IMG/VR virus record: IMGVR_UViG_2660238548_000002
Coordinates: 1 to 18,070 of that record
Strand: one strand, 5' to 3'
DNA from: a virus
Lineage: Duplodnaviria; Heunggongvirae; Uroviricota; Caudoviricetes
Length of the DNA: 18,070 nt
The stretch's first letter is position 1; each line of letters starts with the position of its first letter. Below, piece after piece: positions 1 to 16,053 of this stretch. The notes under the pieces are model-generated. The model saw only the letters and a program-made list of their open reading frames with translations. It was not told where the DNA came from and made no database searches. Both the position numbers and the translations under genes were made by a program.

Positions 1-19
1 GCTGGGAAGGCTGGGTCAT
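1..19 (-). CDS. 5' fragment (MTQPSQ...) of the gene downstream of the adaptor, continuing beyond the window; a tail gene by position
   Basis: ATG at 19..17 on minus strand preceded by GGAGGG; lies 138 bp downstream of adaptor stop. Only 6 codons are in the window. Confidence 0.3.
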
Positions 20-127
20 ATCCCTCCGGCAGAAGCAGAAAAAGCTTATTATGCTTCCATCAGAAACGATGATCTGGCAGCCTGAGTTCACAGATAAAAC
101 ACTCTCCAGGAAAACCGGGGCGGTTCA
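1..127. repeat. Left copy of a ~127-bp inverted repeat; reverse complement matches 17944..18070 with about 8 mismatches
   Basis: Block-by-block comparison of revcomp(1..127) with 17944..18070. Contains an RBS and ATG for an outward-reading gene. Confidence 0.85.
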
Positions 128-157
128 CAAAGCTGGGCTGGATCCAACTGATAGCCA

Positions 158-763
158 TCAGGACAACCTCGCAATGGTAAACTCGTCAACCGGTGGCTGT
201 GGTTCCTGTGATTCATTCTGGCTATGCGAGCCAGCACTAAGAATCACGCGATTGTACATATTGAGGGCAAACGTACCGAGGTCTGCATTCCCAGTCAGCG
301 CCATGTTAATAGCTGCCGCAAGACGCCAGGCCAACGCCTCCATAAAAATGGCATCAAACATGTTCACATCTGAAACGCGAGATACATACTTGAGCCATGC
401 CTGCGGCTGGTCTGTGTAGATCAACTTTCCTGTTCCGTTGGTGTCTGCACCAACTTCGTACTGAACGCGCATTGCTGCTGTTGGATTGCGTACACCAGGA
501 AGCATAATTTCAGTAATGCGCAGACAATCGGACGGGTACTGGTACGCATATTCCCAGTCAGGCGGTGGATTGCTCGTATCTGCAAGCGCCACGCGTTTGG
601 TAGCAAAGTTCCAGTCAAAATCAGAAAGAACAGCATCACGGCAGGCCTCAAAGTGCAGCGAACATTCCCCCGCTTCCTTGCTGGCTTCCGTCAGGCTGTT
701 AATGCTGCGACTGTTGCCAATATTGGACAGCGCACGATTACAGATCTCTACTACAGAGGCCAT
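158..763 (-). CDS. Head-to-tail adaptor / gatekeeper protein, T7 gp11-like
   Basis: Listed ORF 158..766 starts at GTG; the ATG at 763 overlaps the upstream TGA (TGATG). N-terminal ALSNIG...INSL and DFDWNF motifs resemble recalled T7 gp11. Position is downstream of the capsid gene. Confidence 0.55.
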   Translation of the reverse strand: MASVVEICNRALSNIGNSRSINSLTEASKEAGECSLHFEACRDAVLSDFDWNFATKRVALADTSNPPPDWEYAYQYPSDCLRITEIMLPGVRNPTAAMRVQYEVGADTNGTGKLIYTDQPQAWLKYVSRVSDVNMFDAIFMEALAWRLAAAINMALTGNADLGTFALNMYNRVILSAGSHSQNESQEPQPPVDEFTIARLS

Positions 764-1086
764 CACTCACCTCCGTTACCGTACAGAGTTTCAGCCGCTG
801 ATTTTTCTACACCCCCGGAAACAGGAGCGATCGCCATATCAGTGATCTGCAGATCGGCGCTGCGATTAACACCATCGTCAGTTTCTCTGGCAGACAGGCC
901 TCGAATAACAGCCTTTGCAGTTATCATCACTTCCGTTCCGACGCCCTTAGGTTGCGCCTTCAGCTTATTCAATGTGTCGTTATTAAGAGTGATGCACAGC
1001 CCCCATGGGTATTCATCGCGAGTTCTGGTTTCTCCGCTCTCATCCTGGTAGCTGTCAGTGCCGGTTTTGAGGTTTACGAGTTCCAT
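763..1086 (-). CDS. Hypothetical small late protein (107 aa), possibly virion-associated
   Basis: ATG at 1086 with AGGAG 7 nt upstream. In the late operon between capsid and adaptor. Confidence 0.5.
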   Translation of the reverse strand: MELVNLKTGTDSYQDESGETRTRDEYPWGLCITLNNDTLNKLKAQPKGVGTEVMITAKAVIRGLSARETDDGVNRSADLQITDMAIAPVSGGVEKSAAETLYGNGGE

Positions 1087-1097
1087 ATACACTCCTG

Positions 1098-1119
1098 CAA
1101 TAAAGGGGCCGAAGCCCCT
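1098..1119 (-). terminator. Intrinsic terminator inside the late operon, downstream of the capsid-proximal genes
   Basis: On the minus strand: AGGGGC-TTCG-GCCCCT hairpin followed by TTTATTG, lying between the stop at 1137 and the next RBS. Confidence 0.55.
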
Positions 1120-1136
1120 TGTCTGATTCGCGAGGC

Positions 1137-1472
1137 TTACACGCCCAGTTCTTTACGCTTATCTGCGATCTTCTCGCGGAGCGTTTCAGCTTTGGCGTTA
1201 TGGTGTGGCTTCTCGTTAAAGAGCAATTCGTACTCTTCACGGAGCTTATCCAGTTCACCATCATCTGACACATCGTTGATGATTTTGGTGCTGGTTGCTG
1301 CCATTGACACCTTTCCTGCAACTTTTGCTTTTGCCTGTCTGGCTGCATCGTTAACAGGTTCCAGTGCGCTACCAGGCTCACCTTCGTATTCGATTTCTGC
1401 CCCCTCCGGCCACAGAGTGTTATGGATATGAGAGAGGCGCAGAACGCGGTATCTTGGTTTCTCACCTGACAT
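1137..1472 (-). CDS. Hypothetical late protein (111 aa), acidic with a coiled-coil C-terminus
   Basis: ATG at 1472 with AAGGTGA RBS; the listed ORF extends to a GTG at 1481 without an RBS. Confidence 0.5.
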   Translation of the reverse strand: MSGEKPRYRVLRLSHIHNTLWPEGAEIEYEGEPGSALEPVNDAARQAKAKVAGKVSMAATSTKIINDVSDDGELDKLREEYELLFNEKPHHNAKAETLREKIADKRKELGV

Positions 1473-1482
1473 CGATATCACC

Positions 1483-1920
1483 TTAACCAGTTACTTTTGA
1501 GCGGATCGGATACGGCGTATTGGCATCAACATCAAGACTGATACCAGCAGTGAATTCGCCAGCCGTTAGTGGGCCAGTTGCGACGGAGTAGTTAACACGC
1601 AGATATCGCTGAACACCGGCAGGCACCTTTGCAGAAACAACTCGTTTACCTGCTGTCAGGGCGGTCTTTGCCAGTGCGCCACTATCATAAATAGTGGTCC
1701 ATGAGCTGTTATTCTCACTCGTCTGCAACTGGATGTTTACAGTTGCATCACCGCTTGCCGCGGCGGCTGTGTTAACCAGCGCCCAAAACTCAAGCGGGTA
1801 ACCCACGCCGATATCACGACGTTTTCCGTCAATTGGACCGAGATCGATTACGTCAGTAGAAGCCGCGGTATTCGTAACCGCCTGAGCTTCGGAGAACATC
1901 AACAGTTTGTCGGTGATCAT
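1483..1920 (-). CDS. Putative capsid-associated structural protein (145 aa, beta-rich; decoration or cement candidate)
   Basis: ATG at 1920 with GGAG 8 nt upstream. Immediately downstream of the major capsid gene; T/S/A/V/G-rich composition. Confidence 0.4.
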   Translation of the reverse strand: MITDKLLMFSEAQAVTNTAASTDVIDLGPIDGKRRDIGVGYPLEFWALVNTAAAASGDATVNIQLQTSENNSSWTTIYDSGALAKTALTAGKRVVSAKVPAGVQRYLRVNYSVATGPLTAGEFTAGISLDVDANTPYPIRSKVTG

Positions 1921-1971
1921 CTTCTTTCTCCATTAGTGGGTCTGTTACGACCCACAGGTTAATAACAGGCG

Positions 1972-2964
1972 TTACACCACACGGGCTTCTGTTTCCAGAA
2001 GCGCATCAGTCTCACGGATTGGTACACCACGGAATGAAGTCCACCACTCGCCTTCTGTCTCTTTTACGCTGATCGCCAGAGATGTTTTCTCCAGAGATTG
2101 CAGATCAAGAGCCTGGCCTACAGTGCGGTTCATGTAGAACACCGGGCGGCCCATGCCACGGTTTGGAATGCGATGCAGTGCTTTAACCATCAACTTCGCA
2201 ATATTTGCTGCAGAGGAAGGTTCTGAAAGATTGCTGACATCGATGTTTGCAATGCGAACAACATAACGCCAGTCACGCAGAGCAAGCCCGTTGTCCCATT
2301 TGTAATGGGTACGGTAGCCTTCGTACTTGCCGCCATTCGCATCTTCCAGTGTCACCTGGCCTTTATCTTCCATCTGGATGCCAGCCTTCTGCCCTTTCGG
2401 GAAGATGCCATGCACGGTGTTTTCGCCCCACACCACTAACCAGATAGAGGTGTTATCTGTACCCGTGCCACCAGCATCAATGATGTTCTGAGCATTACCC
2501 GCAGACAGGCTGGAATAGCGGGAGGACAGTCCCATAAACTGCTGAGGGTTAACGCTGGAATCACCATAAAACAGCGTCTGCGCCATCTGCTGATTCATCG
2601 CTTCAATAAATGCGCGGTCTTCAGACAGGCGGAATTCGGCGGTATTGCCGTTCAGATCAGCCAGTGACTTATCGACTTCAGCATAGGTTTCCAGCATGCC
2701 AACGGAATCGGTTACCTGCACTGTGGTTGATTTGCTTGGCTGTACGCCATAGTTCAGCAAACGCCAGGTAGCTGAAGGTAAACCAGAACGAATGGTGGTT
2801 CGGTGTCCGGTAGGAAGGTTCCCTTCGACAAAAGGCATATCCTGAAGGATCGGGTTAGTTTGACCGAGAAGCTCGATAATCTTATCGACTTTCCCGTTTG
2901 GATCGACGCGCTTACCCCAGTCAGCCAGCGTTAGCGCAGTTAAGCCTTTAACAGCCATTGTCAT
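1972..2964 (-). CDS. Major capsid protein (about 330 aa)
   Basis: Follows the scaffold gene in portal-scaffold-capsid order; size typical of T7 gp10-type capsid proteins. The ATG at 2958 has better RBS spacing than the one at 2964. Confidence 0.7.
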   Translation of the reverse strand: MTMAVKGLTALTLADWGKRVDPNGKVDKIIELLGQTNPILQDMPFVEGNLPTGHRTTIRSGLPSATWRLLNYGVQPSKSTTVQVTDSVGMLETYAEVDKSLADLNGNTAEFRLSEDRAFIEAMNQQMAQTLFYGDSSVNPQQFMGLSSRYSSLSAGNAQNIIDAGGTGTDNTSIWLVVWGENTVHGIFPKGQKAGIQMEDKGQVTLEDANGGKYEGYRTHYKWDNGLALRDWRYVVRIANIDVSNLSEPSSAANIAKLMVKALHRIPNRGMGRPVFYMNRTVGQALDLQSLEKTSLAISVKETEGEWWTSFRGVPIRETDALLETEARVV

Positions 2965-2972
2965 TTCCTCTC

Positions 2973-3668
2973 TTATTTGCCATAGAGCACTTCGGCCGCA
3001 CTACGCTGGCCTTCATTACCACCGGTGACCATGCCATCTTCAGACATCGCCTTTCCGATTTTCACGAACGTCTTGACCAGATCAGGGTGATTACCCAGTC
3101 CGGTGGTGTTCAGATATTCTTTGAGCTCAGGTGTCCCGAACTGGTCAAGCGCACGCTGCGCGGCGCTAAGGTTAGAAATCAACTTGTCGCCACCGATTTC
3201 TTTGTCAGCTTTTACATCAGCAGCCCACTGCTCGGTTGTTTTCTGCCAGGCTTCTGCCTGGCGCTGCTGAACACCTGCCAGAATCTTCGGATAAGCATCA
3301 ACCAGCTTTTGCGCTTGCTCGTTGGTCAGGTTTAGTTCTCGCGCCACCGGCTCGAATTCCTTCAACGCTTCTGTATCCAGCTCTACGCCTTCGGCAGCCT
3401 GAAACTCGTACTTCTCAGGCGCACCCTCTGGTTTATCGCCGTCCTTTTTTTCATCCAGCTTATCGTTTTCAGGCTTTTTGTCAGCAGCAGGTTTATCGCC
3501 ATCAGCAACAGGTTGTGGCTTATCACCTTCCTGTTGTGATGGATCACCAACTGGAGCAGGGTTATCACCTGCAGGCGCTGACGGTTCTGACGCAGCCGGA
3601 GCTGCTCCACCATCGACTGGTTGCTCATTGCAAAGACGGCTATACAGCAAACGCTCAAATAAATTCAT
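2973..3668 (-). CDS. Scaffolding protein (acidic, Pro/Ala/Asp/Lys-rich N-terminus, helical C-terminus)
   Basis: Low-complexity acidic composition and position between portal and capsid. ATG at 3668 has AGGAG 5 nt upstream; the listed ORF starts at GTG 3674. Confidence 0.65.
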   Translation of the reverse strand: MNLFERLLYSRLCNEQPVDGGAAPAASEPSAPAGDNPAPVGDPSQQEGDKPQPVADGDKPAADKKPENDKLDEKKDGDKPEGAPEKYEFQAAEGVELDTEALKEFEPVARELNLTNEQAQKLVDAYPKILAGVQQRQAEAWQKTTEQWAADVKADKEIGGDKLISNLSAAQRALDQFGTPELKEYLNTTGLGNHPDLVKTFVKIGKAMSEDGMVTGGNEGQRSAAEVLYGK

Positions 3669-3670
3669 GA

Positions 3671-3967
3671 TCACTCCTGTTCACTGGCCTCTTTGGCCAT
3701 CTTCAAATACTGTTCAGGGCAATGCGCCATAACGCGCTGAAACAGTTCCAGCGCCAGATTGCGTTGCCCCTCATTAAATGCCATTGCCATAGCGTCCATC
3801 GGCGAGATAGCGGAAAACACACGGCCTTTCTCCAGTACCGACCAGACAACCCGACGCCCCTGTTCACAGCTCATGACAAAGCGAATGTCATCAATTTCAC
3901 GCTGTGCCATGTCACGTTGCTTACGGGCGTTTTCTTCTTTCAGTTGATCGTCTTCGTAATCTGTCAT
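3671..3967 (-). CDS. Hypothetical small head-module protein (98 aa)
   Basis: ATG at 3967 overlaps the portal stop (ATGA); its own stop lies 2 nt before the scaffold ATG. Tightly coupled within the operon. Confidence 0.55.
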   Translation of the reverse strand: MTDYEDDQLKEENARKQRDMAQREIDDIRFVMSCEQGRRVVWSVLEKGRVFSAISPMDAMAMAFNEGQRNLALELFQRVMAHCPEQYLKMAKEASEQE

Positions 3968-5643
3968 TGTGATTGCCCACCCTGACCACTAACTGCATTC
4001 GCCATAGCTGACAAAACACTCGGATCCGAAGTTTTAGCTTCGCTTAGCGTCTTGGCCCCCTGTGCCGCCGCCATCCCCATCGCCATCATTTGTTGCTGCT
4101 GTTGCTGCTGTGCCCGTTGCTGGCGAGCCTGCTCAACCTGTTCCTGCGGAACAATGACGGTTGGAGACACTCCGGACATATCAGCGAATGCATCGATCGC
4201 CTGATCAACGTTGAGTTTGTCGAGAGCTTCTGGTTTCGCTTGCGCAAGTTGACCAATGAAGTTAACCGTGGACGCCAGACTGGACAGGCCGATAGACTTC
4301 TGCGCCTGAGCCATGACGGAAATGTATTCGACCTTCAGGGGCATGCCTTCCATCGCGTCAGGCGGTGGCGGCAGCATGTTTTTACGCACCATCATCGAGA
4401 AAGCGCGGTCAATGAGAGGATTAAGACATTCGTCGTTCAGACGCTCCAGAACCGGCCCCAACATCAGAAGTTTTTCTTCTTTCATTTCGATCACCGCTTC
4501 AACAGGCATCGAGCGGGTATTGATGTTCTGCAACATCATGAACAGATCGACAAAGTAGGCGCTGTTAATGATTTGACGAGTGTCCTGAATGTCTGCCACC
4601 AAATCTGCTGTACTGGGGTTAACCAGATAAGCAGGCCTGAAGCCATCCTGACCAGTAATCTGATCGATATACGTGATGTCGCCAGGAAGAAGGGAGGCGC
4701 GCTGATTCTTGAGGGAAGTCGGAGCAACCATCGGCGGATTGGTGGCTTTATCAATCAACTGCGACTTGCGCTTCTGGAGAAGCTGCAATGCCTTAACAGG
4801 TCCAAGCGCCAGCATGCCCGGGCATGATGATCCATAAACATCTTCACCGTTAACTTCCCAGCGCGGAGCCATAATTGGAAACTCATCGAATCCGGACTCA
4901 CGCAACAACTTGTCGTTATCGCCACCAACCTCGTAATAAACCGATTTGAATGGCTTGTTCTTGCTATCCAGCTTCGATGTATCGCGGTCAATGTTCGGGT
5001 AAACCGAATGCATCACGTCAATCCACTTCTCGTAGGTGCCGCTTTCCCACATGCTTTTTACGGATTCGCTGACGTTATTTAGCCCGAACTCCTGAACAAG
5101 CTGACGAACAGTCATAGAGAACTTGCGAAAACAGGTGTCAACACTGCCACGAGGTGAGTTAGCCAGGTAGTAACTGCCTATCGGGAATGGCATTGTGCGA
5201 ATGATGTCCTCATCATCCTCCAGTACCGCCATTGCACCGGTGCTGTATGTGCCGAGGCTTCCGTATAACTGCGGCAGCGACTGATAGAGATTCGACTTAT
5301 TGAACATATCGTTCATGCGGTTCTGCACCGCCTCAAGCCACAACTTAACAGGGCCATAATCCATCATTTCAGGATCTGGCGTAGCCAGGCGAAACCACGG
5401 ACGCGCAGGGCTTGTGATGCCTGACATCATGCCGCTGGCGAGAGTGCGCGCCGCCATAGTCCCGGTCGAATCAATAATGCGTGTATTGCGCCGATCGTTA
5501 CGGTTGGCCTCAGAAGTCAGAAAGCGGGAACCACGCGGGTTGATGTAATCACTCAACTCGCGCCAGTGCGGCTCGAACGACTGACGCTCGCTTTCAAGTT
5601 GTGCGAACTGTTTGTTCAATCGCTCTTTAGTTGTTTCCGCCAT
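3964..5643 (-). CDS. Portal protein, T7 gp8-like head-to-tail connector
   Basis: 559 aa. N-terminal region and the Gln/Ala/Met-rich C-terminal tail resemble recalled T7 gp8. Sits upstream of scaffold and capsid. Confidence 0.75.
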   Translation of the reverse strand: MAETTKERLNKQFAQLESERQSFEPHWRELSDYINPRGSRFLTSEANRNDRRNTRIIDSTGTMAARTLASGMMSGITSPARPWFRLATPDPEMMDYGPVKLWLEAVQNRMNDMFNKSNLYQSLPQLYGSLGTYSTGAMAVLEDDEDIIRTMPFPIGSYYLANSPRGSVDTCFRKFSMTVRQLVQEFGLNNVSESVKSMWESGTYEKWIDVMHSVYPNIDRDTSKLDSKNKPFKSVYYEVGGDNDKLLRESGFDEFPIMAPRWEVNGEDVYGSSCPGMLALGPVKALQLLQKRKSQLIDKATNPPMVAPTSLKNQRASLLPGDITYIDQITGQDGFRPAYLVNPSTADLVADIQDTRQIINSAYFVDLFMMLQNINTRSMPVEAVIEMKEEKLLMLGPVLERLNDECLNPLIDRAFSMMVRKNMLPPPPDAMEGMPLKVEYISVMAQAQKSIGLSSLASTVNFIGQLAQAKPEALDKLNVDQAIDAFADMSGVSPTVIVPQEQVEQARQQRAQQQQQQQMMAMGMAAAQGAKTLSEAKTSDPSVLSAMANAVSGQGGQSQ

Positions 5644-5657
5644 TTCAATGACTCCGG

Positions 5658-5864
5658 TTACTGACCAAGCAGCGTTTTACCGCTGGTATTAGCGGTTGAT
5701 GTGTCGCCCTGAGAACCGGTAAGAAGCGTAGAACTACGACCAGCAGCAGCGCGACGGCGACGTGTTTCTTCGTCGCGGGCATCAACAACGGCGGCATCCT
5801 GCTCCTGTGGTGCTGCCTGAACTTCTGGTGTTGCAGGCACTGATGGTGAGCTACCCATGCACAT
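5658..5864 (-). CDS. Small Ala/Gln/Arg-rich low-complexity protein (68 aa), possibly an internal virion protein
   Basis: ATG at 5864 with GGAG RBS; stop 12 nt before the portal RBS. Resemblance to T7 gp7.3 is from memory and weak. Confidence 0.4.
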   Translation of the reverse strand: MCMGSSPSVPATPEVQAAPQEQDAAVVDARDEETRRRRAAAGRSSTLLTGSQGDTSTANTSGKTLLGQ

Positions 5865-5932
5865 ATCAATGACTCCGTACGCAATTAAATTATTACCAAT
5901 TTAACCACAAATGATTTACCTATCGTAGATAG

Positions 5933-5969
5933 TTGACATTTAACGCACGAATTATTACCTTTCAGGTAA
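5933..5969 (+). promoter_or_regulatory. Candidate promoter (TTGACA at 5933..5938) with a perfect TTACC-N5-GGTAA palindrome at 5955..5969
   Basis: Perfect -35 hexamer, AT-rich -10 region, and a palindrome identical in form to those at the cI/cro region. Points toward the noncoding region and tRNA. Confidence 0.4.
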
Positions 5970-6029
5970 GCAAAGAGTTCATTCCGGTTATTAACCTGAC
6001 TAGCTTGTCGTTAAATTGAACAGGTGGGG

Positions 6030-6290
6030 TGAGATTTTATTTTGAGCAGTACGGCGTATGGCACATGCGCCGATAGCGGTCTGGATACGTTTAAGGGGCA
6101 CTCTCCCTTGCTCTGGCAAACGAACCAGGTAGCCGGGATGTGCAAGTCGAGCGGTTTTATTCCGCGCACGGGGATTCACCATCCCGGCGATTCGGTGTGA
6201 CACCTCGGAAGAGACGAGGGTACAACGATGAGAGCATTTATGGAACCGCGACAAAGTGTGGCGCCTTAACAGGCTAAGTGCTCTCAGCGT
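6030..6290 (+). ncRNA. Candidate structured noncoding RNA upstream of the tRNA (class unknown)
   Basis: No + strand ORF of 60 aa or more across 5885..6753. Contains a perfect 9-bp stem (GCCGGGATG 6131..6139 / CATCCCGGC 6180..6188) and several further hairpins. Confidence 0.25.
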
Positions 6291-6291
6291 T

Positions 6292-6368
6292 GTGGCATTA
6301 GCTCAGTTGGACAGAGCAACCGCCTTCTAAGCGGCTGGTCGCAGGTTCGAATCCTGCATGCCACGCCA
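6292..6368 (+). tRNA. tRNA-Arg (anticodon UCU), 77 nt with encoded CCA
   Basis: Manual fold: 7-bp acceptor stem GTGGCAT/ATGCCAC, D-arm GCTC...GAGC, anticodon loop CTTCTAA, T-arm GCAGG-TTCGAAT-CCTGC, discriminator G then CCA. Pair 27-43 is an A-C mismatch. Confidence 0.9.
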
Positions 6369-6411
6369 GAATCACGCCTAAGGACCGTGATGCCAGAAGT
6401 TCCAGGTGCTT

Positions 6412-6454
6412 GGCGGTGATGGTTTCCATTGAAGGACTATCACCGCCCTTTTTA
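6412..6454 (+). terminator. Intrinsic terminator downstream of the tRNA
   Basis: GGCGGTGAT ... ATCACCGCC stem followed by CTTTTTA. Confidence 0.5.
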
Positions 6455-6531
6455 CAGCAGGACGCCATTGCGATGACTTCATGCTGTAAACCCGTACAGC
6501 CACGGAAGGCATAACTCATTGCTTACAGTTC

Positions 6532-6555
6532 GCCCGGTTCACCGGGCATTTTTTT
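6532..6555 (+). terminator. Intrinsic terminator
   Basis: GCCCGG-TTCA-CCGGGC hairpin followed by ATTTTTTT. Confidence 0.7.
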
Positions 6556-6614
6556 AAGGTGTGAATCATGAAATACGAATTCGATGGATTTTAATGTCGT
6601 GACACGTCACAAAC

Positions 6615-6642
6615 AGCCAGCCGATAAGCTGGCTTTGTTTTA
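6615..6642 (+). terminator. Intrinsic terminator-like hairpin
   Basis: AGCCAGC-CGATAA-GCTGGCT followed by TTGTTTTA. Confidence 0.45.
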
Positions 6643-6697
6643 TCCTCATCAGAGGATATCAACGACATTATCCCCTCATAGGGATACGTTTTTCATA

Positions 6698-6726
6698 ATG
6701 ACCGAAGATTACCTTAAAGGTAGAAT
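6698..6726 (+). promoter_or_regulatory. Candidate promoter of the 246-aa gene (-10 TAGAAT at 6721..6726) overlapped by an operator-like palindrome TTACC-N5-GGTAG at 6709..6723
   Basis: -10 hexamer about 28 nt upstream of the ATG; a weak -35 (ATGACC) at 17-bp spacing; palindrome lies between them. Confidence 0.4.
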
Positions 6727-6753
6727 CAGAAAAAAACCTAAAAGGGCCTGGAC

Positions 6754-7494
6754 ATGCTTGAATCACTTAAAGAATACCTATCTTCAACCGTTAATACCGC
6801 TTCGCAAAGGGTCAGAAATCCAGTGTTTGGAGCGTTCGCACTGTCATGGTGCGCCTTTAACTGGAAGTCGATTTTATACTTACTCCTCAGCGACTCCAGC
6901 ATCATCGACAAGATCACCTACATTTCCAGCAATAGCAGTTGGAAAACGGTATTAGCATTCCCATGTGTTTCAGCAATAATCCTGTGCGGCGGCATGCCCT
7001 GGATCAACAACGTGATTTCAAAGTGGCAAGCCAAACCTCTTGATAATTACGATTCGATAGAGAACCACCGGAAGGCCAAGCGCATTCATCGCGCCACACG
7101 CCTGCAGCGCCTGAAGGCAAAGCACGATGTGACATACGACAAAGTTAAGACTGGCGCCGAAAAAGACATACAGGCTATGAAGGAAAGAATTACGGAGTCA
7201 CAGGCCAGGATGGGTGAGCTAACGTCGGAAAGAGATAGGCTCTCCGATAAGGTTTTGGAATTGAATAAGAAGCTGGAAAACATGCAATCAGTGGCTGCAG
7301 CGTTAAAGATTGAGGCAGAAAAGTCCGCCAGAATGCTTGAAGATAGGGAGGCCAAAATAAATAATCTCATACAAGAATTAAAGGAAAAAGAAAAGGAAAG
7401 TATCGTATTGCATATGGGCCATGAACCCTTGCGAAAAACATATACATCACAGGCTGAGAGAATGATTGCTGAAGCCGTGAAAAATAAGCAATAA
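6754..7494 (+). CDS. Orphan accessory protein: two predicted TM helices at the N-terminus, a basic linker and a long coiled-coil C-terminus (246 aa); function unknown
   Basis: Opposite strand to the late operon, visibly AT-rich, with many AGA/AGG Arg and ATA Ile codons. Its stop (7492..7494) lies 1 nt from the terL stop (7496..7498). Confidence 0.7.
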   Translation: MLESLKEYLSSTVNTASQRVRNPVFGAFALSWCAFNWKSILYLLLSDSSIIDKITYISSNSSWKTVLAFPCVSAIILCGGMPWINNVISKWQAKPLDNYDSIENHRKAKRIHRATRLQRLKAKHDVTYDKVKTGAEKDIQAMKERITESQARMGELTSERDRLSDKVLELNKKLENMQSVAAALKIEAEKSARMLEDREAKINNLIQELKEKEKESIVLHMGHEPLRKTYTSQAERMIAEAVKNKQ

Positions 7495-7495
7495 A

Positions 7496-8971
7496 TCACG
7501 CAAACGGGTCGTAATCTGTGATGGCCTTGCCTTGCTGGTTCTGCTGACCGGGAATTCGCAGGCGCTTCGACACAGGGAAAGCAAACGTCAGCAATAGCGC
7601 ATCGCCTTTCCCCGGCGAACGCCCAAGTCGTTCTTTGATATCTTCCTTCGGTTCGATAACGATTTTACCGTCCACGCGAACTTTGTACTCTGCCGTCGAC
7701 AGGTCGTCCGCTGTTTCCTGGTCATCCAGCATACCGCCCAGCCTCAGCCATGTCTTACATGAGTTGAACATCTCCCCACGCTTGTTGAGCATCTGCGGGT
7801 CAGTAGACGCGCCACCGAACGGAACAAGTTGCCATGTACGTCCCCAGCCATCACCGATTGACTTCAAACCGGTTCCGTAACCGAAGTCGATGAATACCGC
7901 GTCAGCCTGATACTTGTCTTCAAAGTCAGCGATGCGCTTCGCCATAATCAGATCGTCAGTGGTCTTGTTGCCAGTCCACAGCACCTTACTGTGCAGCCCC
8001 TGCCGCAGGTATATCACAGCGTCATCAACGCCGGAGTATGCCGGGTCAACGCCGATTATCACCGGAGCATGTGCCACCTGCGCAGCAGTTACCACCCGTT
8101 TCATTGCCTCGTCAGTAAGGCCGGTAGGGATAAACTGCAATTCAGATGCATCAGGGAATATGCCGCGCACACGGATTTTAACGAAGTCGCTGTCTTCCCC
8201 GTAGTCATCAACCCATTTCTGCAACTGCTGTTTGTTAGTGCCTTCCACCGTCCGGCTGTCAATCTGCGCAGTTTTCCAGCGGTGTTTATATTTGCGGAAA
8301 CATTCGCGGAAACGTCCGGTATTACGCGTCGGGTTTCCGAACGCCACCCAGATAATCTCAGTGTCTTCGTCCGTAAGCGCCCCCTCGGCAACTTCCCACA
8401 CCAGATCCGCAATGTTCGACGCTTCATCAAACACCACGATGATGCGTTTGCGCTCGTTGTGTAGTCCGGCGAATGCCTCGGTGTTGTGCTCAGACCAGGG
8501 GATTGCGTCAGCTCGCCACCGCTTGTCGTGCCCAGGATCATTGCTGTACATCGCGGTAGCGGTACAGGTAAACCAGTCTTTCGTGATAGCAAGGTTCGAC
8601 CACTTGATAATTTCCGGCCAGGTCTTCGTTCGTAGCTGGTTGTCGGTGTTGGCGGTCACCACGACCTTACAATCCTCGCAAGTGGACATGCCCCAGTTGA
8701 TCAGCATTGAGATGAATGCGGATTTACCAATACCGTGACCAGAAGCGCGTGCCAGCATAAGCGGCTGATAGCGCGTCTCTGGATTCTGCAGGTGATCACG
8801 TATCTCTCGGAACGCATCAGCCTGCCACTGACGTGGGCCGGTAGCATGTGCCAGTTCAGTCCCCTCTTCCCCCCAAGGGAACGCATAGAGGGCATAGCCA
8901 AGCGGATCGTGAGTGAACCCTGCAATATCCTCGATTAACTGCTCTTCAGGAGATAACGCTGTATCTGTCAC
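7496..8971 (-). CDS. Terminase large subunit
   Basis: 491 aa with Walker A-like SGHGIGKS near the N-terminus and a C-terminal nuclease-like region. GTG start overlaps the terS stop (GTGA); immediately downstream of terS. Confidence 0.85.
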   Translation of the reverse strand: MTDTALSPEEQLIEDIAGFTHDPLGYALYAFPWGEEGTELAHATGPRQWQADAFREIRDHLQNPETRYQPLMLARASGHGIGKSAFISMLINWGMSTCEDCKVVVTANTDNQLRTKTWPEIIKWSNLAITKDWFTCTATAMYSNDPGHDKRWRADAIPWSEHNTEAFAGLHNERKRIIVVFDEASNIADLVWEVAEGALTDEDTEIIWVAFGNPTRNTGRFRECFRKYKHRWKTAQIDSRTVEGTNKQQLQKWVDDYGEDSDFVKIRVRGIFPDASELQFIPTGLTDEAMKRVVTAAQVAHAPVIIGVDPAYSGVDDAVIYLRQGLHSKVLWTGNKTTDDLIMAKRIADFEDKYQADAVFIDFGYGTGLKSIGDGWGRTWQLVPFGGASTDPQMLNKRGEMFNSCKTWLRLGGMLDDQETADDLSTAEYKVRVDGKIVIEPKEDIKERLGRSPGKGDALLLTFAFPVSKRLRIPGQQNQQGKAITDYDPFA

Positions 8972-9564
8972 TGATTGCCATCCTGACGTTCTTTGAGTCG
9001 CTTCCTGGCTGCTGCTATGCGATCAGCAATTGTCACATTCACATTAACATCCAAGCGTTCTTTGAATGCGTTGACGTCGACGTGCTTACCAATCAGTTCG
9101 AGGTTCTTCACCTTGTCAGGCCATTTAATTTTTTTGAGGATTGTCTCTATCGAATCCTCGTTCATGTTCATGATGGTCGATGACAGATCAAAGCCGCTAA
9201 GCGTAGTGCGCCAGATTTTCGGCCACTCACGGATTGGTTTAAGGCTCCCATCGTCGTTGAGGATGTCGATCACGTCCATCTGGTCGATCTCCACTAGGCG
9301 CATGAGAACGTAATCAGCACTGACGCGCATTCGTTTGTTGCGCTCCTCCATCAACTCGGCAATCCGTTTTTGAATGCGTTCATCGCGCATCATGACACTG
9401 GCTTTAACTGCCGCTGTATTTGGGGAGAATCCTGCGTTAATCGCTGCCTGAGTCTGGTTTTCAGGCGTTTTGATGTATGACTGGCAATAAGCCTCCTGCA
9501 TTGCTGTGAGCGGCTTAAATTGCGTTGATTTGCGTTTATAGGTTTTAGGTTCAGCAGGCATCAT
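8968..9564 (-). CDS. Terminase small subunit
   Basis: Family-typical N-terminal LTAMQEAYCQSY...NAGFSPNTAAVKAS. Start placed at ATG 9564 (GGTGG upstream); the listed ORF's further extension (TITTTVTITT) runs through a terminator and repeats. Confidence 0.75.
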   Translation of the reverse strand: MMPAEPKTYKRKSTQFKPLTAMQEAYCQSYIKTPENQTQAAINAGFSPNTAAVKASVMMRDERIQKRIAELMEERNKRMRVSADYVLMRLVEIDQMDVIDILNDDGSLKPIREWPKIWRTTLSGFDLSSTIMNMNEDSIETILKKIKWPDKVKNLELIGKHVDVNAFKERLDVNVNVTIADRIAAARKRLKERQDGNQ

Positions 9565-9571
9565 AACCACC

Positions 9572-9602
9572 GTGGTAATAGTTACCGTTGTGGTAATAGT
9601 AA
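9572..9602. repeat. Two 13-bp direct repeats GTGGTAATAGT(T/A)A 18 bp apart, just upstream of the terS start
   Basis: Read directly from the sequence; the first copy forms the palindrome GGTAATAGTTACC. Candidate packaging or regulatory site. Confidence 0.5.
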
Positions 9603-9606
9603 CATG

Positions 9607-9633
9607 CAAAATAAAGCCGCCATAGTTGGCGGC
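9607..9633 (-). terminator. Intrinsic terminator immediately upstream of terS
   Basis: On the minus strand: GCCGCCA-ACTA-TGGCGGC followed by TTTATTTTG, in the 75-bp gap between the 70-aa gene and terS. Confidence 0.65.
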
Positions 9634-9638
9634 AGTAT

Positions 9639-9851
9639 TCAAAGTCCATCAAATTCATCGTAAAAACTCTCGTCAAGATACCCTTCCCATTTACCGCGAA
9701 TGAAAATTACATCCTCGCCGCAAGGGTGCTGACTGTCGATAACTATATCCCTCCTGGCGCAACCATACTTATGCATGAGAAATTTAACCTCTTTCGGAAA
9801 ATTTGCTGAGTTATCTCTCATATCTTCAAGGTCGTAGCGTATTTTTGGCAT
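9639..9851 (-). CDS. Hypothetical small protein (70 aa)
   Basis: ATG at 9851 with GAGGTG RBS directly upstream; the listed ORF extends to 9866. Confidence 0.5.
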   Translation of the reverse strand: MPKIRYDLEDMRDNSANFPKEVKFLMHKYGCARRDIVIDSQHPCGEDVIFIRGKWEGYLDESFYDEFDGL

Positions 9852-9867
9852 AACACCTCGTGACATG

Positions 9868-10206
9868 TCACACTATTAATTTCGTTTCATGCCAGCCTTT
9901 GGTCACCCAGCATTGCGAGTCACCATTACACGGGCATGAATTCACAGGAACTCTCTCGCCGCACTTACCGCAACGTTTTCTGCTGATCGATTTTATACGC
10001 CCGCGCACGCGTGCATCATCCTGGCGGATCAGTAACGCTATATACTCACCAAATTCGTAAGGCGCACGCCCGGGGCGACGTGTGGCACAGTTACGCTCCA
10101 GCATTTCAATTTCCTGAGCATCAAGCACAATCTCCAGCTTACGTACACCGGATTCAGCTTGTCTGGCTCTCTGAGCGGCTTTGCGCTCTGCTGCTGATTT
10201 AGCCAT
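9868..10206 (-). CDS. Hypothetical protein (112 aa) with a basic N-terminus and a C-terminal Cys4 zinc-ribbon (CGKCG...CPC)
   Basis: ATG at 10206, 2 nt after the upstream stop. Function unknown; a regulatory role is only a guess from position. Confidence 0.5.
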   Translation of the reverse strand: MAKSAAERKAAQRARQAESGVRKLEIVLDAQEIEMLERNCATRRPGRAPYEFGEYIALLIRQDDARVRGRIKSISRKRCGKCGERVPVNSCPCNGDSQCWVTKGWHETKLIV

Positions 10207-10480
10207 CAATATTCACCTTTATCGCGAACACCTTTACCGGTTTATCGCCGAAGTGGGGATGTGTGATTGTCTTGATTTCATATCCGTCATACGGAATATC
10301 AATTCTGCGGCTGGAATCGTCGCGCTTCGGATATCCCTTTGTGATAATCAGGCGGTCATACTCCCGGAACATAATTCGCTTATTCCAATAGTCATTACAC
10401 AGGCGATACTCCTCGGTTTTCTCGCCACGAATCATGGCATCGAAGTATTCACCTTTTACGGCAAGTTGCAGGTTAGCCAC
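10199..10480 (-). CDS. ASCH/DUF3850-like small protein (93 aa)
   Basis: GTG start with AGGAGG 7 nt upstream. N-terminal LQLAVKGEYFDAMIRGEKTEEYR resembles the recalled DUF3850/ASCH pattern. Confidence 0.45.
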   Translation of the reverse strand: MANLQLAVKGEYFDAMIRGEKTEEYRLCNDYWNKRIMFREYDRLIITKGYPKRDDSSRRIDIPYDGYEIKTITHPHFGDKPVKVFAIKVNIDG

Positions 10481-10757
10481 GACCTTCCTCCTTTGGCTTG
10501 TGAATTTGTATCGTCATGCCGCTTTGAGTGGTGACTACAATGACAGAACCAGGCTGAAGGCTGTTAAGATTGAATGCTTCGTAAAACGAATCCAATGCCA
10601 GTGCTTTTTTATTCTTTCGGTTCCACCAACGCCATCCCTTGCTACAGGCTACACTGACAATCCACTGCCCACTCCTGTAAGCCATATAAAACCAGATGAG
10701 CAAAACCTGAAGGAAGGCCATCCAGTCAATAATCGTATATTTCGCGAAGGAGTCCAT
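10473..10757 (-). CDS. Small membrane protein (94 aa) with one hydrophobic helix
   Basis: ATG at 10757 overlaps the upstream TGA (TGATG) and has a strong AGGAGGT RBS. Hydrophobic segment YTIIDWMAFLQVLLIWFYMAY. Confidence 0.55.
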   Translation of the reverse strand: MDSFAKYTIIDWMAFLQVLLIWFYMAYRSGQWIVSVACSKGWRWWNRKNKKALALDSFYEAFNLNSLQPGSVIVVTTQSGMTIQIHKPKEEGRG

Positions 10758-11329
10758 CAATTCACCTCCTGCGGCGGTTCTGGTAGCGGCATCCAGAACA
10801 AGACGTTCCCTAACCACGATAAAGTGCCGTCGCTCAACTCCACGTATTCCCCTTGTACCTGTCCTGCCATATACTCGCCGTGCTTTGAATAAATTAAAAT
10901 CCAATCATCTTGAGCGGGCATTCGCTCACTACAGCTTATCCAACCATCCGGAGTTACCGGAGAGTTGCCCGATAGCTCGTTCAACTTGTAAGTCTGGCTT
11001 ACAAGTTCGGCTTCCAATTCTGCTATGCGCTTCTCTGATGCTTCCAGCTCAACACGCAGCTTCCCTACCGTTAGCGCAATATCCTCGTTCTCCTGGTCGC
11101 GGCGTTTGATGTATTGCTGGTTTCTTTCCCGTTCATCCAGTAGTGCCAGCACGGTTTCTGGTCCGGCCAGAAGTTTGAAGGCGTTGAGCGCATCAATATC
11201 CACACCGTAATCTTTAAGTTCCTGTTCACTTAACAAATCATCATCAACTGGCAACATTAACAGGCGTTCCATTGCCGGAATTGCACGTTCTGCCGCCATT
11301 CGCAGTGCCTGATAGTCAATCTTGCTCAC
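10757..11329 (-). CDS. Ea22/Ead-like protein with a C-terminal DUF551-type domain (190 aa)
   Basis: GTG start with AAAGGAGG RBS. C-terminal W...FWMPLPEPP resembles the DUF551 signature common in lambdoid early regions. Confidence 0.5.
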   Translation of the reverse strand: MSKIDYQALRMAAERAIPAMERLLMLPVDDDLLSEQELKDYGVDIDALNAFKLLAGPETVLALLDERERNQQYIKRRDQENEDIALTVGKLRVELEASEKRIAELEAELVSQTYKLNELSGNSPVTPDGWISCSERMPAQDDWILIYSKHGEYMAGQVQGEYVELSDGTLSWLGNVLFWMPLPEPPQEVN

Positions 11330-11982
11330 TGGTTGCCTCCTTTTCGAAGCTCTGCGGCAAAGTCAGTGGCATGTTCACCGAGTAGTTTCCAGTTATCGCG
11401 TATATCAGATGCAAATGACTGTTCGGATTTTGAGTTACATTTCTGTGCAAACATCTCCAATCCCTGCGCCCGCACTTCAGCCAGGCATTTGCGAAACTCG
11501 GAAACGTACTGTTCGACGCTCATTCCCCAGCTAAGTGGACATTCATTGAATGTTTCGCCTTCGTGCTCTTCATCAGGTAGCTCTTTGGTAAAGAACTCAC
11601 GCTCAATGGCGTGGAGTGTGTCAGCAAAACGACGTAAGTTACTCAAACCTACCGTAATGGAGAATTCAGGAGCATCACATCCGACGCCCATCTGCTGATA
11701 AACGGCGGTTTTGAAGGCCTTCAGCGCCGCATTCTCCGCTGCCAGCTCCGAAAACTTCTCGTGTGCCAACTTAACAGCTGCATCAGCCTGCTTAATTGAC
11801 TCAATCGCTTTCTGCTGGTCTTCGGCCAGCGCATTAGCACGCACCAGTTGCACTTCCAGTTGCGTTGCCAAATCGCTGATCAGCTTTGCCACGCTGCGCA
11901 TATCAACGGCACCACATTCTGCTTTCAGTTCCGAAGCCATCTCATGCCCGGCGGTAACTAACCCTTTGATATTACAGTCCAT
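11326..11982 (-). CDS. Hypothetical coiled-coil protein (218 aa)
   Basis: ATG at 11982 with GAGGG RBS. No recognisable domain. Confidence 0.5.
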   Translation of the reverse strand: MDCNIKGLVTAGHEMASELKAECGAVDMRSVAKLISDLATQLEVQLVRANALAEDQQKAIESIKQADAAVKLAHEKFSELAAENAALKAFKTAVYQQMGVGCDAPEFSITVGLSNLRRFADTLHAIEREFFTKELPDEEHEGETFNECPLSWGMSVEQYVSEFRKCLAEVRAQGLEMFAQKCNSKSEQSFASDIRDNWKLLGEHATDFAAELRKGGNQ

Positions 11983-12027
11983 CTTTACCCTCGCTTATCC
12001 ACATAACTTATTGATTACATTGATAAC

Positions 12028-12055
12028 TAAAAAGATCGTCGATTCATGCCGATCT
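12028..12055 (-). terminator. Possible intrinsic terminator overlapping the HNH gene stop
   Basis: AGATCG ... CGATCT stem flanked by an A-tract and a T-tract; the 11-nt loop makes it weak. Confidence 0.3.
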
Positions 12056-12652
12056 ATTTTTCATCAGTGATTCATAAAACTTTTGCCACTTATGCCGACC
12101 GAAATTAGCCTTCGAGTTACAGCTCGAACAAAGGCAAATAAGGTTCTCCTGACGACAGTCTTGCTTGTCGTAATTGATGTGATGAGTTGTTAGCCTTTTG
12201 TCTGTTCCATCACAACCTGGGTTCTGACAAGTAAAACCATCTCGCTCAATAACCCTCTTGCTCGTTTCTCGGAAATCCCACGGATACGGCAATCTCGATA
12301 ATCCACCAGACCAGTTTGGATTTCCTTCCCCCTTCATCAGAGAAGAACGCATTATGTTGGAACACTGTTTCGAGCAGCATTTATGACGCTTCTCATGACT
12401 CAAGAAAACGGAGAACGAAGATCCGCATACGCAGCATATTTTTAATACTCGCTTTAGTTCCCGATTTACCGTCTTGCCTCGCTGTGAAATTCCTACACAC
12501 TGAAGTGAGCAGAACCTTGAAGATGAGTTGGCTCGCTTAACCTGATATTGCCTGCCACATACGGGGCAAACCTTTTCGATTTTCCCACCCTTCCAATTCG
12601 GGTTTTTATCACCGGATACAATCAATCCCGCAGCATTGGGCTTCTCGCTCAT
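12044..12652 (-). CDS. HNH homing-type endonuclease with duplicated NPNW(K/S)GG modules (202 aa)
   Basis: C-terminal HHINYDK...ENLICLCSSCN is an HNH motif; two NPNWxGG repeats. AT-rich. ATG at 12652 overlaps the upstream stop (ATGA). Confidence 0.8.
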   Translation of the reverse strand: MSEKPNAAGLIVSGDKNPNWKGGKIEKVCPVCGRQYQVKRANSSSRFCSLQCVGISQRGKTVNRELKRVLKICCVCGSSFSVFLSHEKRHKCCSKQCSNIMRSSLMKGEGNPNWSGGLSRLPYPWDFRETSKRVIERDGFTCQNPGCDGTDKRLTTHHINYDKQDCRQENLICLCSSCNSKANFGRHKWQKFYESLMKNRSA

Positions 12653-13002
12653 AGTTCCTCAACCTCCCATCCACCACCGAGCTTTTTAGGTTTTGGATAA
12701 GCAACCTGAAAGACAAACGGATAGCTGTCTGCCGCAACCTTCATCTTGACTCTCGCATCGTCAGTAAAGACTGACTTACTTCCCTTAACGTCCACCATCA
12801 CCAACTGCCCGTCAGCCAACATCACGGCAAAATCTACAGTCAGGAAGCAGTTGTCAGCCAGCCGCAGCTTGATACCCTCGAACCGATACCAGGCGACTTC
12901 CCCTGCACGTTTACGCTGCTCAAGGTGCTGGCAATACGCAGATTCTGTTTTGTTCATCTGGCCTGTTTTGAGTCGACCAAGAGCCTGTATCTGTTTTCTC
13001 AT
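12649..13002 (-). CDS. DUF1064-like phage protein (117 aa)
   Basis: Pattern ...YRFEGIKLRLADNCFLTVDFAVM...VDVKG resembles recalled DUF1064. Translationally coupled to the HNH gene. Confidence 0.45.
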   Translation of the reverse strand: MRKQIQALGRLKTGQMNKTESAYCQHLEQRKRAGEVAWYRFEGIKLRLADNCFLTVDFAVMLADGQLVMVDVKGSKSVFTDDARVKMKVAADSYPFVFQVAYPKPKKLGGGWEVEEL

Positions 13003-13005
13003 GAT

Positions 13006-13082
13006 TTACCTCTAAGGTAATTAAAAACCACATAAGGCACAAAATCAATAGATCTAAGAATATTTTGTTACCCATTGGGTAA
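13006..13082. promoter_or_regulatory. Two perfect TTACC-N5-GGTAA palindromes (13006..13020 and 13068..13082) upstream of the DUF1064 gene
   Basis: The first palindrome starts 4 nt upstream of the ATG and contains the RBS; the second lies about 60 bp further upstream. Confidence 0.5.
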
Positions 13083-13119
13083 TTATTGAGGCGTAAAAAA
13101 ATGCGCTATCGCGCTGGTA

Positions 13120-14717: not shown

Positions 14718-14732
14718 GATTAATCTCCGCTA

Positions 14733-14933: not shown

Positions 14934-15037
14934 GGTAAGCCCTGTTATTAGTATTGGGATTACGGTTATTTTGTGCTGACACAAAAAAAAGATCAACCAG
15001 ATTTGGTTTTTTATTACCTTTAAGGTGCGAATAGATA

Positions 15038-15061: not shown

Positions 15062-15083
15062 TACAGAGGTTTGTGGCTGGATA

Positions 15084-15468: not shown

Positions 15469-16053
15469 ATGAAAAGTATCCAGGACGTCCGCAGGCAAAA
15501 TCTCAACGACTTGATCGACCGTGAATTCAATGGTGTTCAGACGCGGATGGCAGAAAAACTTGGAACTCAGGCAAATCTGGTAAACCGCTGGGCTCTTGGC
15601 AAGAAGGTTATCGGCGACCAGGTTGCGCGAAAAATTGAAGCTGCCGCCAATAAACCCCGTAACTGGCTTGATATCGATCGCTCGCTTTCTCAGGAGGGGT
15701 TTCAGCCTGTCGGCCCAAGCGACATTGGTCAGCTGGCGGCTCACAACCTGGAACGCTGGATGAGCGAAAGCCGCGACCTTTCAACACAGGGAAAACTTCA
15801 CCGCGCATCCGGCGTCGCCCAGGTGACAATCAGCCGCCTGTTAAACAATGAGGTCAGTGTTTCCATTTCCACCCTGGAGAATGTTGCATCCGCATTCGGG
15901 CGTCACGGATATGAACTACTGATTCACCCGCACGACCCTGCGACTATCAACTATGACCGCTCGCGCTACGCATTGTTACCCGAAACCGAGAAAGCAAAGA
16001 TCGAAAGTTACATTGAATTTGTCATCAACCAGAACGAAAAAAACAAACAATAA
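15469..16053 (+). CDS. CI-like repressor with two HTH (XRE-type) domains and no S24 peptidase domain (194 aa)
   Basis: Two HTH-like segments (residues about 20..60 and 95..150). Divergent from cro and followed by a strong terminator. Confidence 0.65.
   Translation: MKSIQDVRRQNLNDLIDREFNGVQTRMAEKLGTQANLVNRWALGKKVIGDQVARKIEAAANKPRNWLDIDRSLSQEGFQPVGPSDIGQLAAHNLERWMSESRDLSTQGKLHRASGVAQVTISRLLNNEVSVSISTLENVASAFGRHGYELLIHPHDPATINYDRSRYALLPETEKAKIESYIEFVINQNEKNKQ

Follow-up and report, generated by a model that had tools for sequence, protein, structure and literature searches.

In the stretch of DNA examined here (the window; 18,070 nucleotides (nt), IMG/VR virus record IMGVR_UViG_2660238548_000002, positions 1 to 18,070), the plus-strand segment 6048..6294 is, by comparison with its homologues, a conserved non-coding RNA, with a core of about 175 nt followed by an arm of about 19 base pairs (bp), P7, which abuts a gene for tRNA-Arg(TCT). 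We regard it as almost certain that the structured RNA is real and that Rfam 15 has no entry for its family, and the window copy is best explained as a member of an undescribed family that would sit promoter-proximally in repressor-controlled early phage transcripts. Alignments of the homologues and their genomic contexts establish the fold (P1, P2, P4, P6, PK2 and the P7 arm), the plus-strand orientation, the non-coding status, the modular spread and the position at the start of early operons. The window itself is, from sequence similarity, an epsilon15/phiV10-like (Uetakevirus) phage or prophage, region 5860-6760 being 96-97% identical to phiv142-3, TL-2011b and phiV10 (BLAST).

The original prediction, made from the letters alone, had proposed a structured RNA upstream of the tRNA, and this proposal held: the region folds better than chance, forms a discrete conserved module and has strongly covarying helices. 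Specifically, 6045-6298 (254 nt) folded at -103.3 kcal/mol, as compared with -86.0 ± 4.9 for dinucleotide shuffles (z = -3.56). The parts of the fold are as follows.

6048..6222, plus strand: RNA core, matched end to end by covariance model R1 (142.6 bits)
6052-6059 with 6065-6072, plus strand: hairpin P1, CGGCGTAT/ATGCGCCG, loop GGCAC at 6060-6064
6081-6084 with 6125-6128, plus strand: helix P2, which closes a variable sub-domain
6088-6092 with 6118-6122 and 6093-6098 with 6104-6109, plus strand: helices of the P2 sub-domain in the window, the distal helices coming from single sequences only
6061-6064 with 6140-6143, plus strand: candidate pseudoknot PK1, GCAC of the P1 loop with GUGC inside the strand GGUAGCCGGRAUGUGCAAG, which is invariant in the core
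6151..6165, plus strand: variable hairpin P3, GCGG-TTTTATT-CCGC in the window
6171-6174 with 6182-6185, plus strand: hairpin P4, conserved loop YUCACCA at 6175-6181
6177-6180 with 6194-6197, plus strand: pseudoknot PK2, CACC of the P4 loop with GGUG, with compensatory changes
6203-6207 with 6215-6219, plus strand: hairpin P6, CCUCG/CGAGG, conserved loop GAAGAGA
6221-6227 with 6288-6294 and 6229-6240 with 6275-6286, plus strand: P7 arm, variable tip at 6241-6274

Covariation was assessed in two alignments, one of 41 representatives (A2) and one built from the model (A4) with 50 distinct sequences, including those from Kosakonia, Phytobacter, E. whittamii and SopranoGao; the latter was fitted to the nested helices, and its pseudoknot columns were not modelled as pairs. 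In A2, 97.2% of pair cells were paired (24-46% in slid controls) and double changes occurred at 11 of 29 pairs, while A4 gave 96.8% (slid controls, 24-47%) and 13 of 32 pairs; none of 500 shuffles reached these levels in either alignment. P2 carried double changes at three of its four pairs (e.g., CUGG/CCAG, CCACA/UGUGG and CUGAGAG/CUCUCAG), P4 covaried at three of four (ACGA/UCGU, ACGC/GCGU, GGGA/UCCC, UUGA/UCAA and GCGC/GCGC) and P6 at four of five (CCUGG/CCAGG, GCCGG/CCGGC, CCCGG/CCGGG and CCAGG/CCUGG). In P1, one pair was changed from G-C to A-U in 23 of the 50 sequences, and the sixth pair was U.G in 49 of them. Since G.U pairs were frequent in both P1 and P4, and these U.G and G.U pairs are valid on the plus strand only, we assigned the RNA to that strand.

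PK2 changed from CACC:GGUG to AACC:GGUU in the group of cdtI and the Stx2c phages, and the same change recurs in locus L238 on a different P2/P3 background. The two sides of PK1 were complementary in 49 of 50 sequences (the single mismatch being L182) but invariant, and therefore carry no covariation information. At the position of P3, a hairpin of varying sequence was seen by reading, without statistics, in all lineages inspected.

Conservation and covariation across homologues, which the original prediction had named as its check, thus supported the stems while revising the detailed fold. Two of its hairpins, CGGCG...CGCCG and CCTCG-GAAGAGA-CGAGG, are the conserved P1 and P6 (the latter at 6203-6219). 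Its perfect 9-bp stem exists and does pair with 6180-6188; the 5' arm lies at 6132-6140 rather than 6131-6139. It is, however, no part of the conserved fold, being perfect only in the window lineage, owing to GGGAUG and the GGGA/UCCC version of P4 there; elsewhere just GCC/GGC and a few more pairs remain. Bases of the 3' half of P4 and of part of PK2 are taken up by this stem. The further hairpin GGTGTGACACC proved to be half of a pseudoknot and not a conserved helix: in phage P1 the local GGTG-TGA-CACC hairpin is disrupted (CAGC) and in the cdtI group it contains mismatches, while PK2 is kept, and P4 with PK2 was accordingly preferred.

The P7 arm, whose last three bases in the window are the first three of tRNA-Arg, has the consensus CAAC..GAGAGCA...UGCUCUC..GUUG and trailed the core in 28 of 43 representatives. 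Folded sequence by sequence, its flanks formed about 19 bp in all 28 (mean -27.2 kcal/mol, z -7.0) around a tip of 1-162 nt, and in one Klebsiella lineage the entire inner helix was swapped compensatorily to GGGUAGCUCAC/GUGAGCUACUC. RNAalifold on the joined flanks recovered the outer stem only, MAFFT having misaligned the inner helix, and was set aside for the per-sequence folding. With about 19 bp in 28 of 28, the arm has the roughly two turns of near-continuous helix expected of an RNase III hairpin and is thus a predicted site. In some of the loci L007 (BUCT554), L102, L106 and L005 (SPN1S), the variable tips held hairpins that resemble the T-arm of a tRNA (GGTTCGAATCC, GGTTCGATTCC), and the tip in L106 is a nearly complete tRNA-like sequence; in the two of these loci to which ARAGORN was applied, L005 and L007, it called no tRNA in the tips.

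No known RNA family accounts for the element, and the first reading too had been unable to assign it to one. Searches of the window against Rfam 15 at the gathering threshold and at E ≤ 10 (the latter on the 921-nt region) returned the tRNA as the sole match and nothing within 6030-6290; the element was likewise unmatched at eight homologous loci, and ARAGORN and the Rfam tRNA model found no tRNA or tRNA-like cloverleaf in 6030-6290. The literature on P1 ban, prophage small RNAs (sRNAs) of enterohaemorrhagic Escherichia coli (EHEC), mEp phages, epsilon15 and structured-RNA surveys did not describe it, as far as our incomplete coverage goes, and an earlier description is possible.

Nor does the alignment reveal a gene remnant, which was the alternative that it had been meant to check: among frames anchored on the conserved motif, none was stop-free in more than 15 of the 41 sequences, and core lengths (149-181 nt) were spread over all three classes modulo 3. 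The remark that 5885..6753 holds no plus-strand open reading frame (ORF) of 60 or more amino acids (aa) was mistaken, as the mechanical ORF 6584..6955 (123 aa) begins inside; on the minus strand lie 6000..6254 (84 aa) and 6298..6519 (73 aa). None of these three ORFs is conserved or has a credible family match. Pfam gave nothing for the ORFs over the element, and PHROGs gave a lone 21-residue match to a minus-strand ORF (E = 3e-4), which most likely reflects ORFs miscalled over the RNA in phage records. Some GenBank records place hypothetical proteins over the element.

We found homologues well beyond the Uetakeviruses. The window's 6051..6295, but not its surroundings, aligned at 82% identity with lambdoid phages (Stx2c-converting phages, cdtI, 2H10 and Ayreon; BLAST), and 6051..6213 aligned at about 80% with P1, P7, D6, SJ46 and RCS47 (BLAST). 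Weaker matches came from Uetakeviruses of Salmonella, Klebsiella and Enterobacter, from the lytic Klebsiella phage SopranoGao and from phages deposited as Stenotrophomonas phages. Homologues were present in 1,843 of 5,426 complete E. coli genomes, at 1,923 chromosomal and 554 plasmid places, and among the matches listed from E. coli genomes no annotated feature lay on the element except the tRNA. An exact-pattern scan of IMG/VR added 119 loci, and clustering at 93% left 43 representatives. A 16-base degenerate pattern run over 596 Gb of genomes was too unspecific, with true hits at only 6 of 120 loci, three of which were those in Kosakonia, Phytobacter and E. whittamii. All homologues found were in enterobacterial phages, a host range that fits a partner in the host machinery.

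Genomic context was classified for 139 loci. In 71, a CI-type repressor gene (helix-turn-helix (HTH) and S24 peptidase motif) lay upstream on the same strand, with no tRNA next to the element; 45 were Uetakevirus-like, with tRNA-Arg(TCT) within 320 nt downstream in 28; 13 were P1-like, with a tRNA(CAT) within 60 nt upstream in 12; and the remaining context comprised 10 loci, five of which had a tRNA(CAT) upstream. From these arrangements, the element is in three unrelated temperate phage types part of a repressor-controlled early unit, usually at its very start. In the lambdoid loci read in detail, the stop codon of the cI-type repressor gene preceded the core by 95-390 nt, which is the slot of the pL leader. 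The promoter between cI and the element in cdtI (TTGACA..CATAAT) shares its inverted repeat, ATGTA..TACAT, with the region between cI and cro, and we therefore read it as pL with its operator OL. Core and predicted transcription start were about 10 nt or less apart in L018 and SopranoGao. In P1, the element lies 14 nt past trnI (tRNA-Ile) and before ban, within the C1-controlled ban operon, which also holds a dicF-like region and two more tRNAs.

Across representatives, the element does not behave as an independent sRNA gene with its own promoter and a terminator straight after the RNA. A promoter lies directly upstream of the core in many contexts, though not in P1, and a terminator by strict criteria was found within 80 nt past the core end in just one of the 37 representatives, which makes the core, as a rule, the 5' portion of a longer transcript. 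Its 3' neighbour is exchangeable and can be P7, a different module, an ORF preceded by a ribosome-binding site (L072 and P1 ban), a tRNA or further P7-like modules. The genes downstream are heterogeneous and share no single functional class, which does not fit a riboswitch.

The lambdoid leaders are long and untranslated; that of cdtI runs for about 590 nt from the start to the first annotated ORF and has, before that ORF, a 10-bp GC-rich hairpin followed by UCUUUUU. In many others, a conserved hairpin, GGCGGTCG..CGACCGCC, stands ahead of a T run, and a further P7-like module comes next. Under relaxed criteria, a stable hairpin with a T run lay between the core and the first ORF of at least 100 aa in 27 of 37 representatives, as against 16 of 37 when the same segments were read on the opposite strand. 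Neither cdtI nor mEp390 has an annotated N gene.

Several leaders held additional structures. Repeated P7-like modules of the form CACAAC..AAAGCGC..GUCGUUAAAUC..GCGCUYYCARUUGUGG were seen in L011 (2750-3000) and in the leaders of L104, L120 and L072, which also shared a second conserved feature, GCUGUGUGUAGUCUUGGCGGUCG..CGACCGCC with a T run after it; both count as additional conserved RNA structures of lambdoid pL leaders. In L133 (BUCT709), 2380-3060 of a single early-left leader contained at least seven hairpins with GGAAAGAC loops that resemble boxB or CsrA-binding sites. In L091, the core and a reverse-oriented ORF are seemingly inserted into the leader, with the direct repeat GAGCCTGATGTGGTGAAAAGACAGGCA on both sides, a hint at module movement. 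The sequence TGCTCTTTAACAA past the core was first taken for a boxA, and hence for coexistence with nutL and N in L091 and L048; this reading was dropped, since an inserted reverse-oriented ORF with a flanking direct repeat is seen there.

In the window, the element is part of the following unit.

5933..5961, plus strand: putative early promoter, -35 TTGACA at 5933-5938, 17-nt spacer, weak -10 TACCTT at 5956-5961
5955..5969, no strand assigned: operator palindrome TTACC-N5-GGTAA (TTACC-TTTCA-GGTAA in the window), overlapping the -10 hexamer
5968..6047, plus strand: 5' leader, with GTCGTTAAAT at 6007-6016 as the remnant, by alignment, of a decayed long-hairpin module
6292..6368, plus strand: tRNA-Arg, anticodon TCT (ARAGORN; Rfam tRNA model, 68.9 bits)
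6412-6447, 6532-6547, 6615-6634 and 6669-6686, plus strand: four terminator-like hairpins with T runs, which close the unit

The TTGACA and the palindrome are where the original prediction had placed them, and its view that a promoter with an operator points into the region gained support from the number of palindromes and from the annotation of epsilon15, weak as the -10 is. The putative promoter is read from the sequence, a consensus promoter scan having made no call at 5933..5961, and its arrangement is likewise conserved in SPN1S and epsilon15. TTACC-N5-GGTAA occurred 10 times in the window with up to one mismatch (starts at 5955, 6709, 9564, 9582, 13006, 13068, 15351, 15399, 16111 and 16173), as compared with 0.28 expected, and is therefore a real operator family. 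The copies lie pairwise between genes, on both sides of a double-HTH repressor gene (15469..16053), and the 10 are probably the phage's full operator set. In epsilon15, the site homologous to 5955..5969 was labelled 'repressor, lysogeny' by the depositors.

The long-hairpin module upstream of the core, a remnant only in the window, is intact in relatives from Salmonella, Klebsiella and Enterobacter, and the intact copy of epsilon15 was labelled 'RNaseIII, mRNA processing' by its depositors. Epsilon15 (L257) retains the promoter, operator and upstream hairpin module at 1410-1595, while two thirds of the core, on its 3' side, have been deleted together with P7, the tRNA and the first terminator; the remaining terminator is followed 5 nt later by the ribosome-binding site of an ORF. 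In phiv142-3, only the tRNA and terminators come after the element, and then a convergent terminase gene.

As to function, we lean, tentatively and by analogy, towards a cis-acting leader that would condition early transcription or the fate of the early transcript, put-like in its role but unrelated to put. In the window, transcription of the RNA would be driven by the TTGACA promoter at 5933, under shut-off by the phage repressor at the operator (5955-5969), and the element would form a 5' leader of about 325 nt on the tRNA-Arg precursor. On emerging from RNA polymerase, the core would act in cis on the early elongation complex or on the nascent transcript, and the complex so conditioned could read through long untranslated leaders that contain terminators, by processive antitermination or by protection from Rho. 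The long hairpins of the P7 type and the adjacent tRNA would then serve as processing points for RNase III and RNase P, which might later detach the leader. Long untranslated RNAs of E. coli are normally terminated by Rho unless the elongation complex is modified, as with rrn boxA, lambda N and HK022 put. We favour a role in cis because the element is promoter-proximal, lacks its own terminator, is indifferent to what lies downstream and is confined to enterobacterial hosts, and because it precedes long untranslated, terminator-containing leaders in phages that have no N gene there.

Several observations weigh against such a role. Each phage has one copy, as compared with putL and putR in HK022, and there is no homology to the put sequences of HK022 or HK639. 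By strict criteria, terminators in the 37 representatives had no overall strand bias, and under the relaxed criteria the enrichment was modest (27 vs 16 of 37). In P1, 2.3 kb lie between the element and the annotated promoter. The window unit is closed by its four terminators, with the ORF at 6754 seemingly having its own promoter; in phiv142-3, just a tRNA and terminators past the element give the appearance of a pure RNA cassette; and epsilon15, having lost two thirds of the core, still keeps the arrangement of terminator and then ORF, so the core must be dispensable there.

These same observations, namely the phiv142-3 cassette, the window terminators, the epsilon15 deletion and the distance in P1, along with the RNase III-type helices and the tRNA adjacency, keep alive the main rival, a possible, if on balance unlikely, reading in which the core is itself the product, cut from the early transcript by RNase III and/or RNase P as a stable RNA that would act in trans on a target of the host or the phage (e.g., for protein sequestration or counter-defence). 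It would suit a complex fold with invariant unpaired stretches, and helices of about 19 bp flank the core, the upstream one being that labelled as an RNase III site in epsilon15. In two phage types that are not related to each other, the element directly adjoins tRNA genes (28/45 Uetakevirus-like and 12/13 P1-like loci), the remainder of the P1 ban leader is made up of RNA genes (the dicF-like region and three tRNAs), the phiv142-3 cassette holds RNA genes only, and the element moves between phages as a discrete module. However, in most contexts the element has no terminator or promoter of its own, no tRNA is nearby in 71 of 139 loci, and the core of P1 and L072 sits directly on the 5' untranslated region (UTR) of an ORF, with no processing hairpin downstream; such an RNA would also be one with no known target or partner.

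We consider it improbable that the element is a sensor, that is, a riboswitch-like aptamer for a metabolite, an ion or a tRNA that tunes expression of the early operon to host physiology. Its size, pseudoknots and invariant junction nucleotides are like those of large aptamers, its position is that of a 5' UTR, and tRNAs are close by, with T-arm-like sequences in some P7 tips. Moreover, the 9-bp pairing of 6132-6140 with 6180-6188 is an alternative that excludes P4, PK1 and PK2 in the window lineage; that helix, though, is not conserved elsewhere. The downstream genes (ban, recombination genes, tRNA and small unknown ORFs) are unrelated, unlike those of metabolite riboswitches, and no conserved expression platform overlaps a terminator or ribosome-binding site.

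A leader that serves only the expression, stability or 5' processing of tRNA-Arg in the window phage appears quite improbable as well: the element abuts the tRNA, with three bases common to both, and the tRNA is present in 28 of 45 Uetakevirus-like loci, but most homologues have none, the P1 tRNA is upstream of the element, and homology with the lambdoid copies stops at the tRNA border. That there is no RNA element at all, and that the region is explained by a protein gene (small or decayed), by a site acting as DNA or by hairpins arising by chance, is most improbable. In favour of it, mechanical ORFs cross the element (6000..6254, minus strand, 84 aa; 6042..6200, plus strand), hypothetical proteins have been deposited over it, and there is the weak PHROG match over 21 aa; but no frame is open in all 41 representatives, lengths fall in every modulo-3 class, Pfam has no match, and compensatory changes keep the RNA pairing, including the strand-specific G.U pairs.

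More broadly, it is possible, if rather doubtful, that the element represents a new class of RNA acting directly on a conserved enterobacterial machine at the start of lytic growth, either as a third polymerase-modifying kind with a structure of its own (antitermination or anti-Rho) or as an early RNA, cut out of its transcript, by which a host factor is put out of action. Were this so, such a class would have escaped notice although phage P1 and roughly one in three sequenced E. coli genomes carry it. P1, the lambdoid prophages and E. coli are among the best-studied of systems, and still a pseudoknotted early-operon RNA of 175 nt is without annotation in 1,843 RefSeq genomes and has no Rfam family. 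Control of early transcription, if true, would explain how lambdoid phages that lack N express early-left operons behind untranslated, terminator-containing leaders of 0.6-1 kb, and would be a new solution to processive antitermination; action in trans, if true, would add a new early phage effector RNA. Either way, spurious calls of hypothetical proteins over the element are corrected, and covariance model R1 is a ready marker of prophage early promoters, including those of Stx2c- and Cdt-converting phages.

The element and its tRNA form a plus-strand island between two structural and packaging genes of the window.

3964..5643, minus strand: head-tail connector gene (Pfam Head-tail_con, E = 1e-187)
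7496..8971, minus strand: large terminase gene, flanking the island on the other side

Of terminator-like hairpins in 6412..6686, four were found and 0.8 expected; four consecutive plus-strand hairpins between the tRNA and the next ORF, ahead of convergent terminase genes, are an unusually heavy stop. That next ORF (6754..7494, 246 aa; phrog_4780, function unknown) has a predicted coiled coil and a promoter-like site at 6698-6726, overlapped by the operator copy at 6709-6723; it is missing from phiv142-3 and resembles an inserted moron. Additionally, a minus-strand ORF (9868..10209, 113 aa) has cysteine pairs at its C-terminus and an arginine-rich N-terminus, AERKAAQRARQAESGVRK, with a superficial likeness to the RNA-binding arginine-rich motifs of N-type antiterminators. 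Among the relatives, cdtI (L004) encodes on the minus strand at 777-965 matches to the Rfam families C4 antisense RNA (68.4 bits) and isrK (60 bits), adjoining an antirepressor gene.

We compared the element with several known systems. A likeness of its GGTAGC to the ops site of RfaH, noticed by eye, was dropped, the flanks misfitting around a shared 6-mer. The species 1 and 2 RNAs of T4 are stable non-tRNA RNAs in a phage tRNA unit, freed by tRNA-processing enzymes, and we know of no homology between them and the element. ROOL and GOLLD are, like the element, complex folded phage RNAs of unknown function, often beside tRNA genes in phages and prophages; unlike it, they exceed 500 nt and occur in other bacterial groups, and their Rfam families did not match it. 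EAR of Bacillus subtilis and the RNA part of conAn, both large antiterminators from mobile elements, are structured RNAs past a main promoter that let polymerase read through terminators. By description they are set apart from the element, belonging to Gram-positive hosts and being unrelated to it, and conAn also needs a protein.

The lambda pL leader, with boxA and boxB of nutL and then an RNase III site ahead of N, stands where the element does in lambdoid phages, and the long hairpins of the element leaders are plausible RNase III sites, as in that leader. As possible leads, P6, a 5-bp GC-rich stem with a purine-rich loop, recalls boxB, and the 3' strand of P7, UGCUCUUUCC or UGCUCUCAGC, resembles boxA. 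Unlike in lambda nut, however, the boxA-like bases are paired inside P7 and are replaced outright in one lineage, and the relatives inspected for an N gene (cdtI and mEp390) had none.

The closest functional analogues are putL and putR of HK022 and the put-like RNAs of HK639. Membership of that family was rejected, as there was no sequence or model similarity and size and architecture differ: BLAST against HK022 gave only a chance 13-mer inside nun, model R1 found nothing in HK022 or HK639, and the put regions of both, read directly, are unlike the element. Put lets polymerase read through terminators in cis, in dependence on the zinc-binding domain of the beta' subunit. It is about 70 nt with two stems and occurs twice per phage, whereas the element occurs once and combines a core of about 175 nt, four or more helices and pseudoknots; antitermination by the element is proposed by analogy. 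The location is nevertheless that of a put site, just downstream of an early promoter and ahead of terminators, both in the lambdoid relatives and in the window. Like put, the element is a cis-encoded folded RNA just past a lambdoid early promoter, before terminators, in phages without an N gene there (PMC9378689; HK639 annotation), and in both cases the action would be independent of which genes lie downstream.

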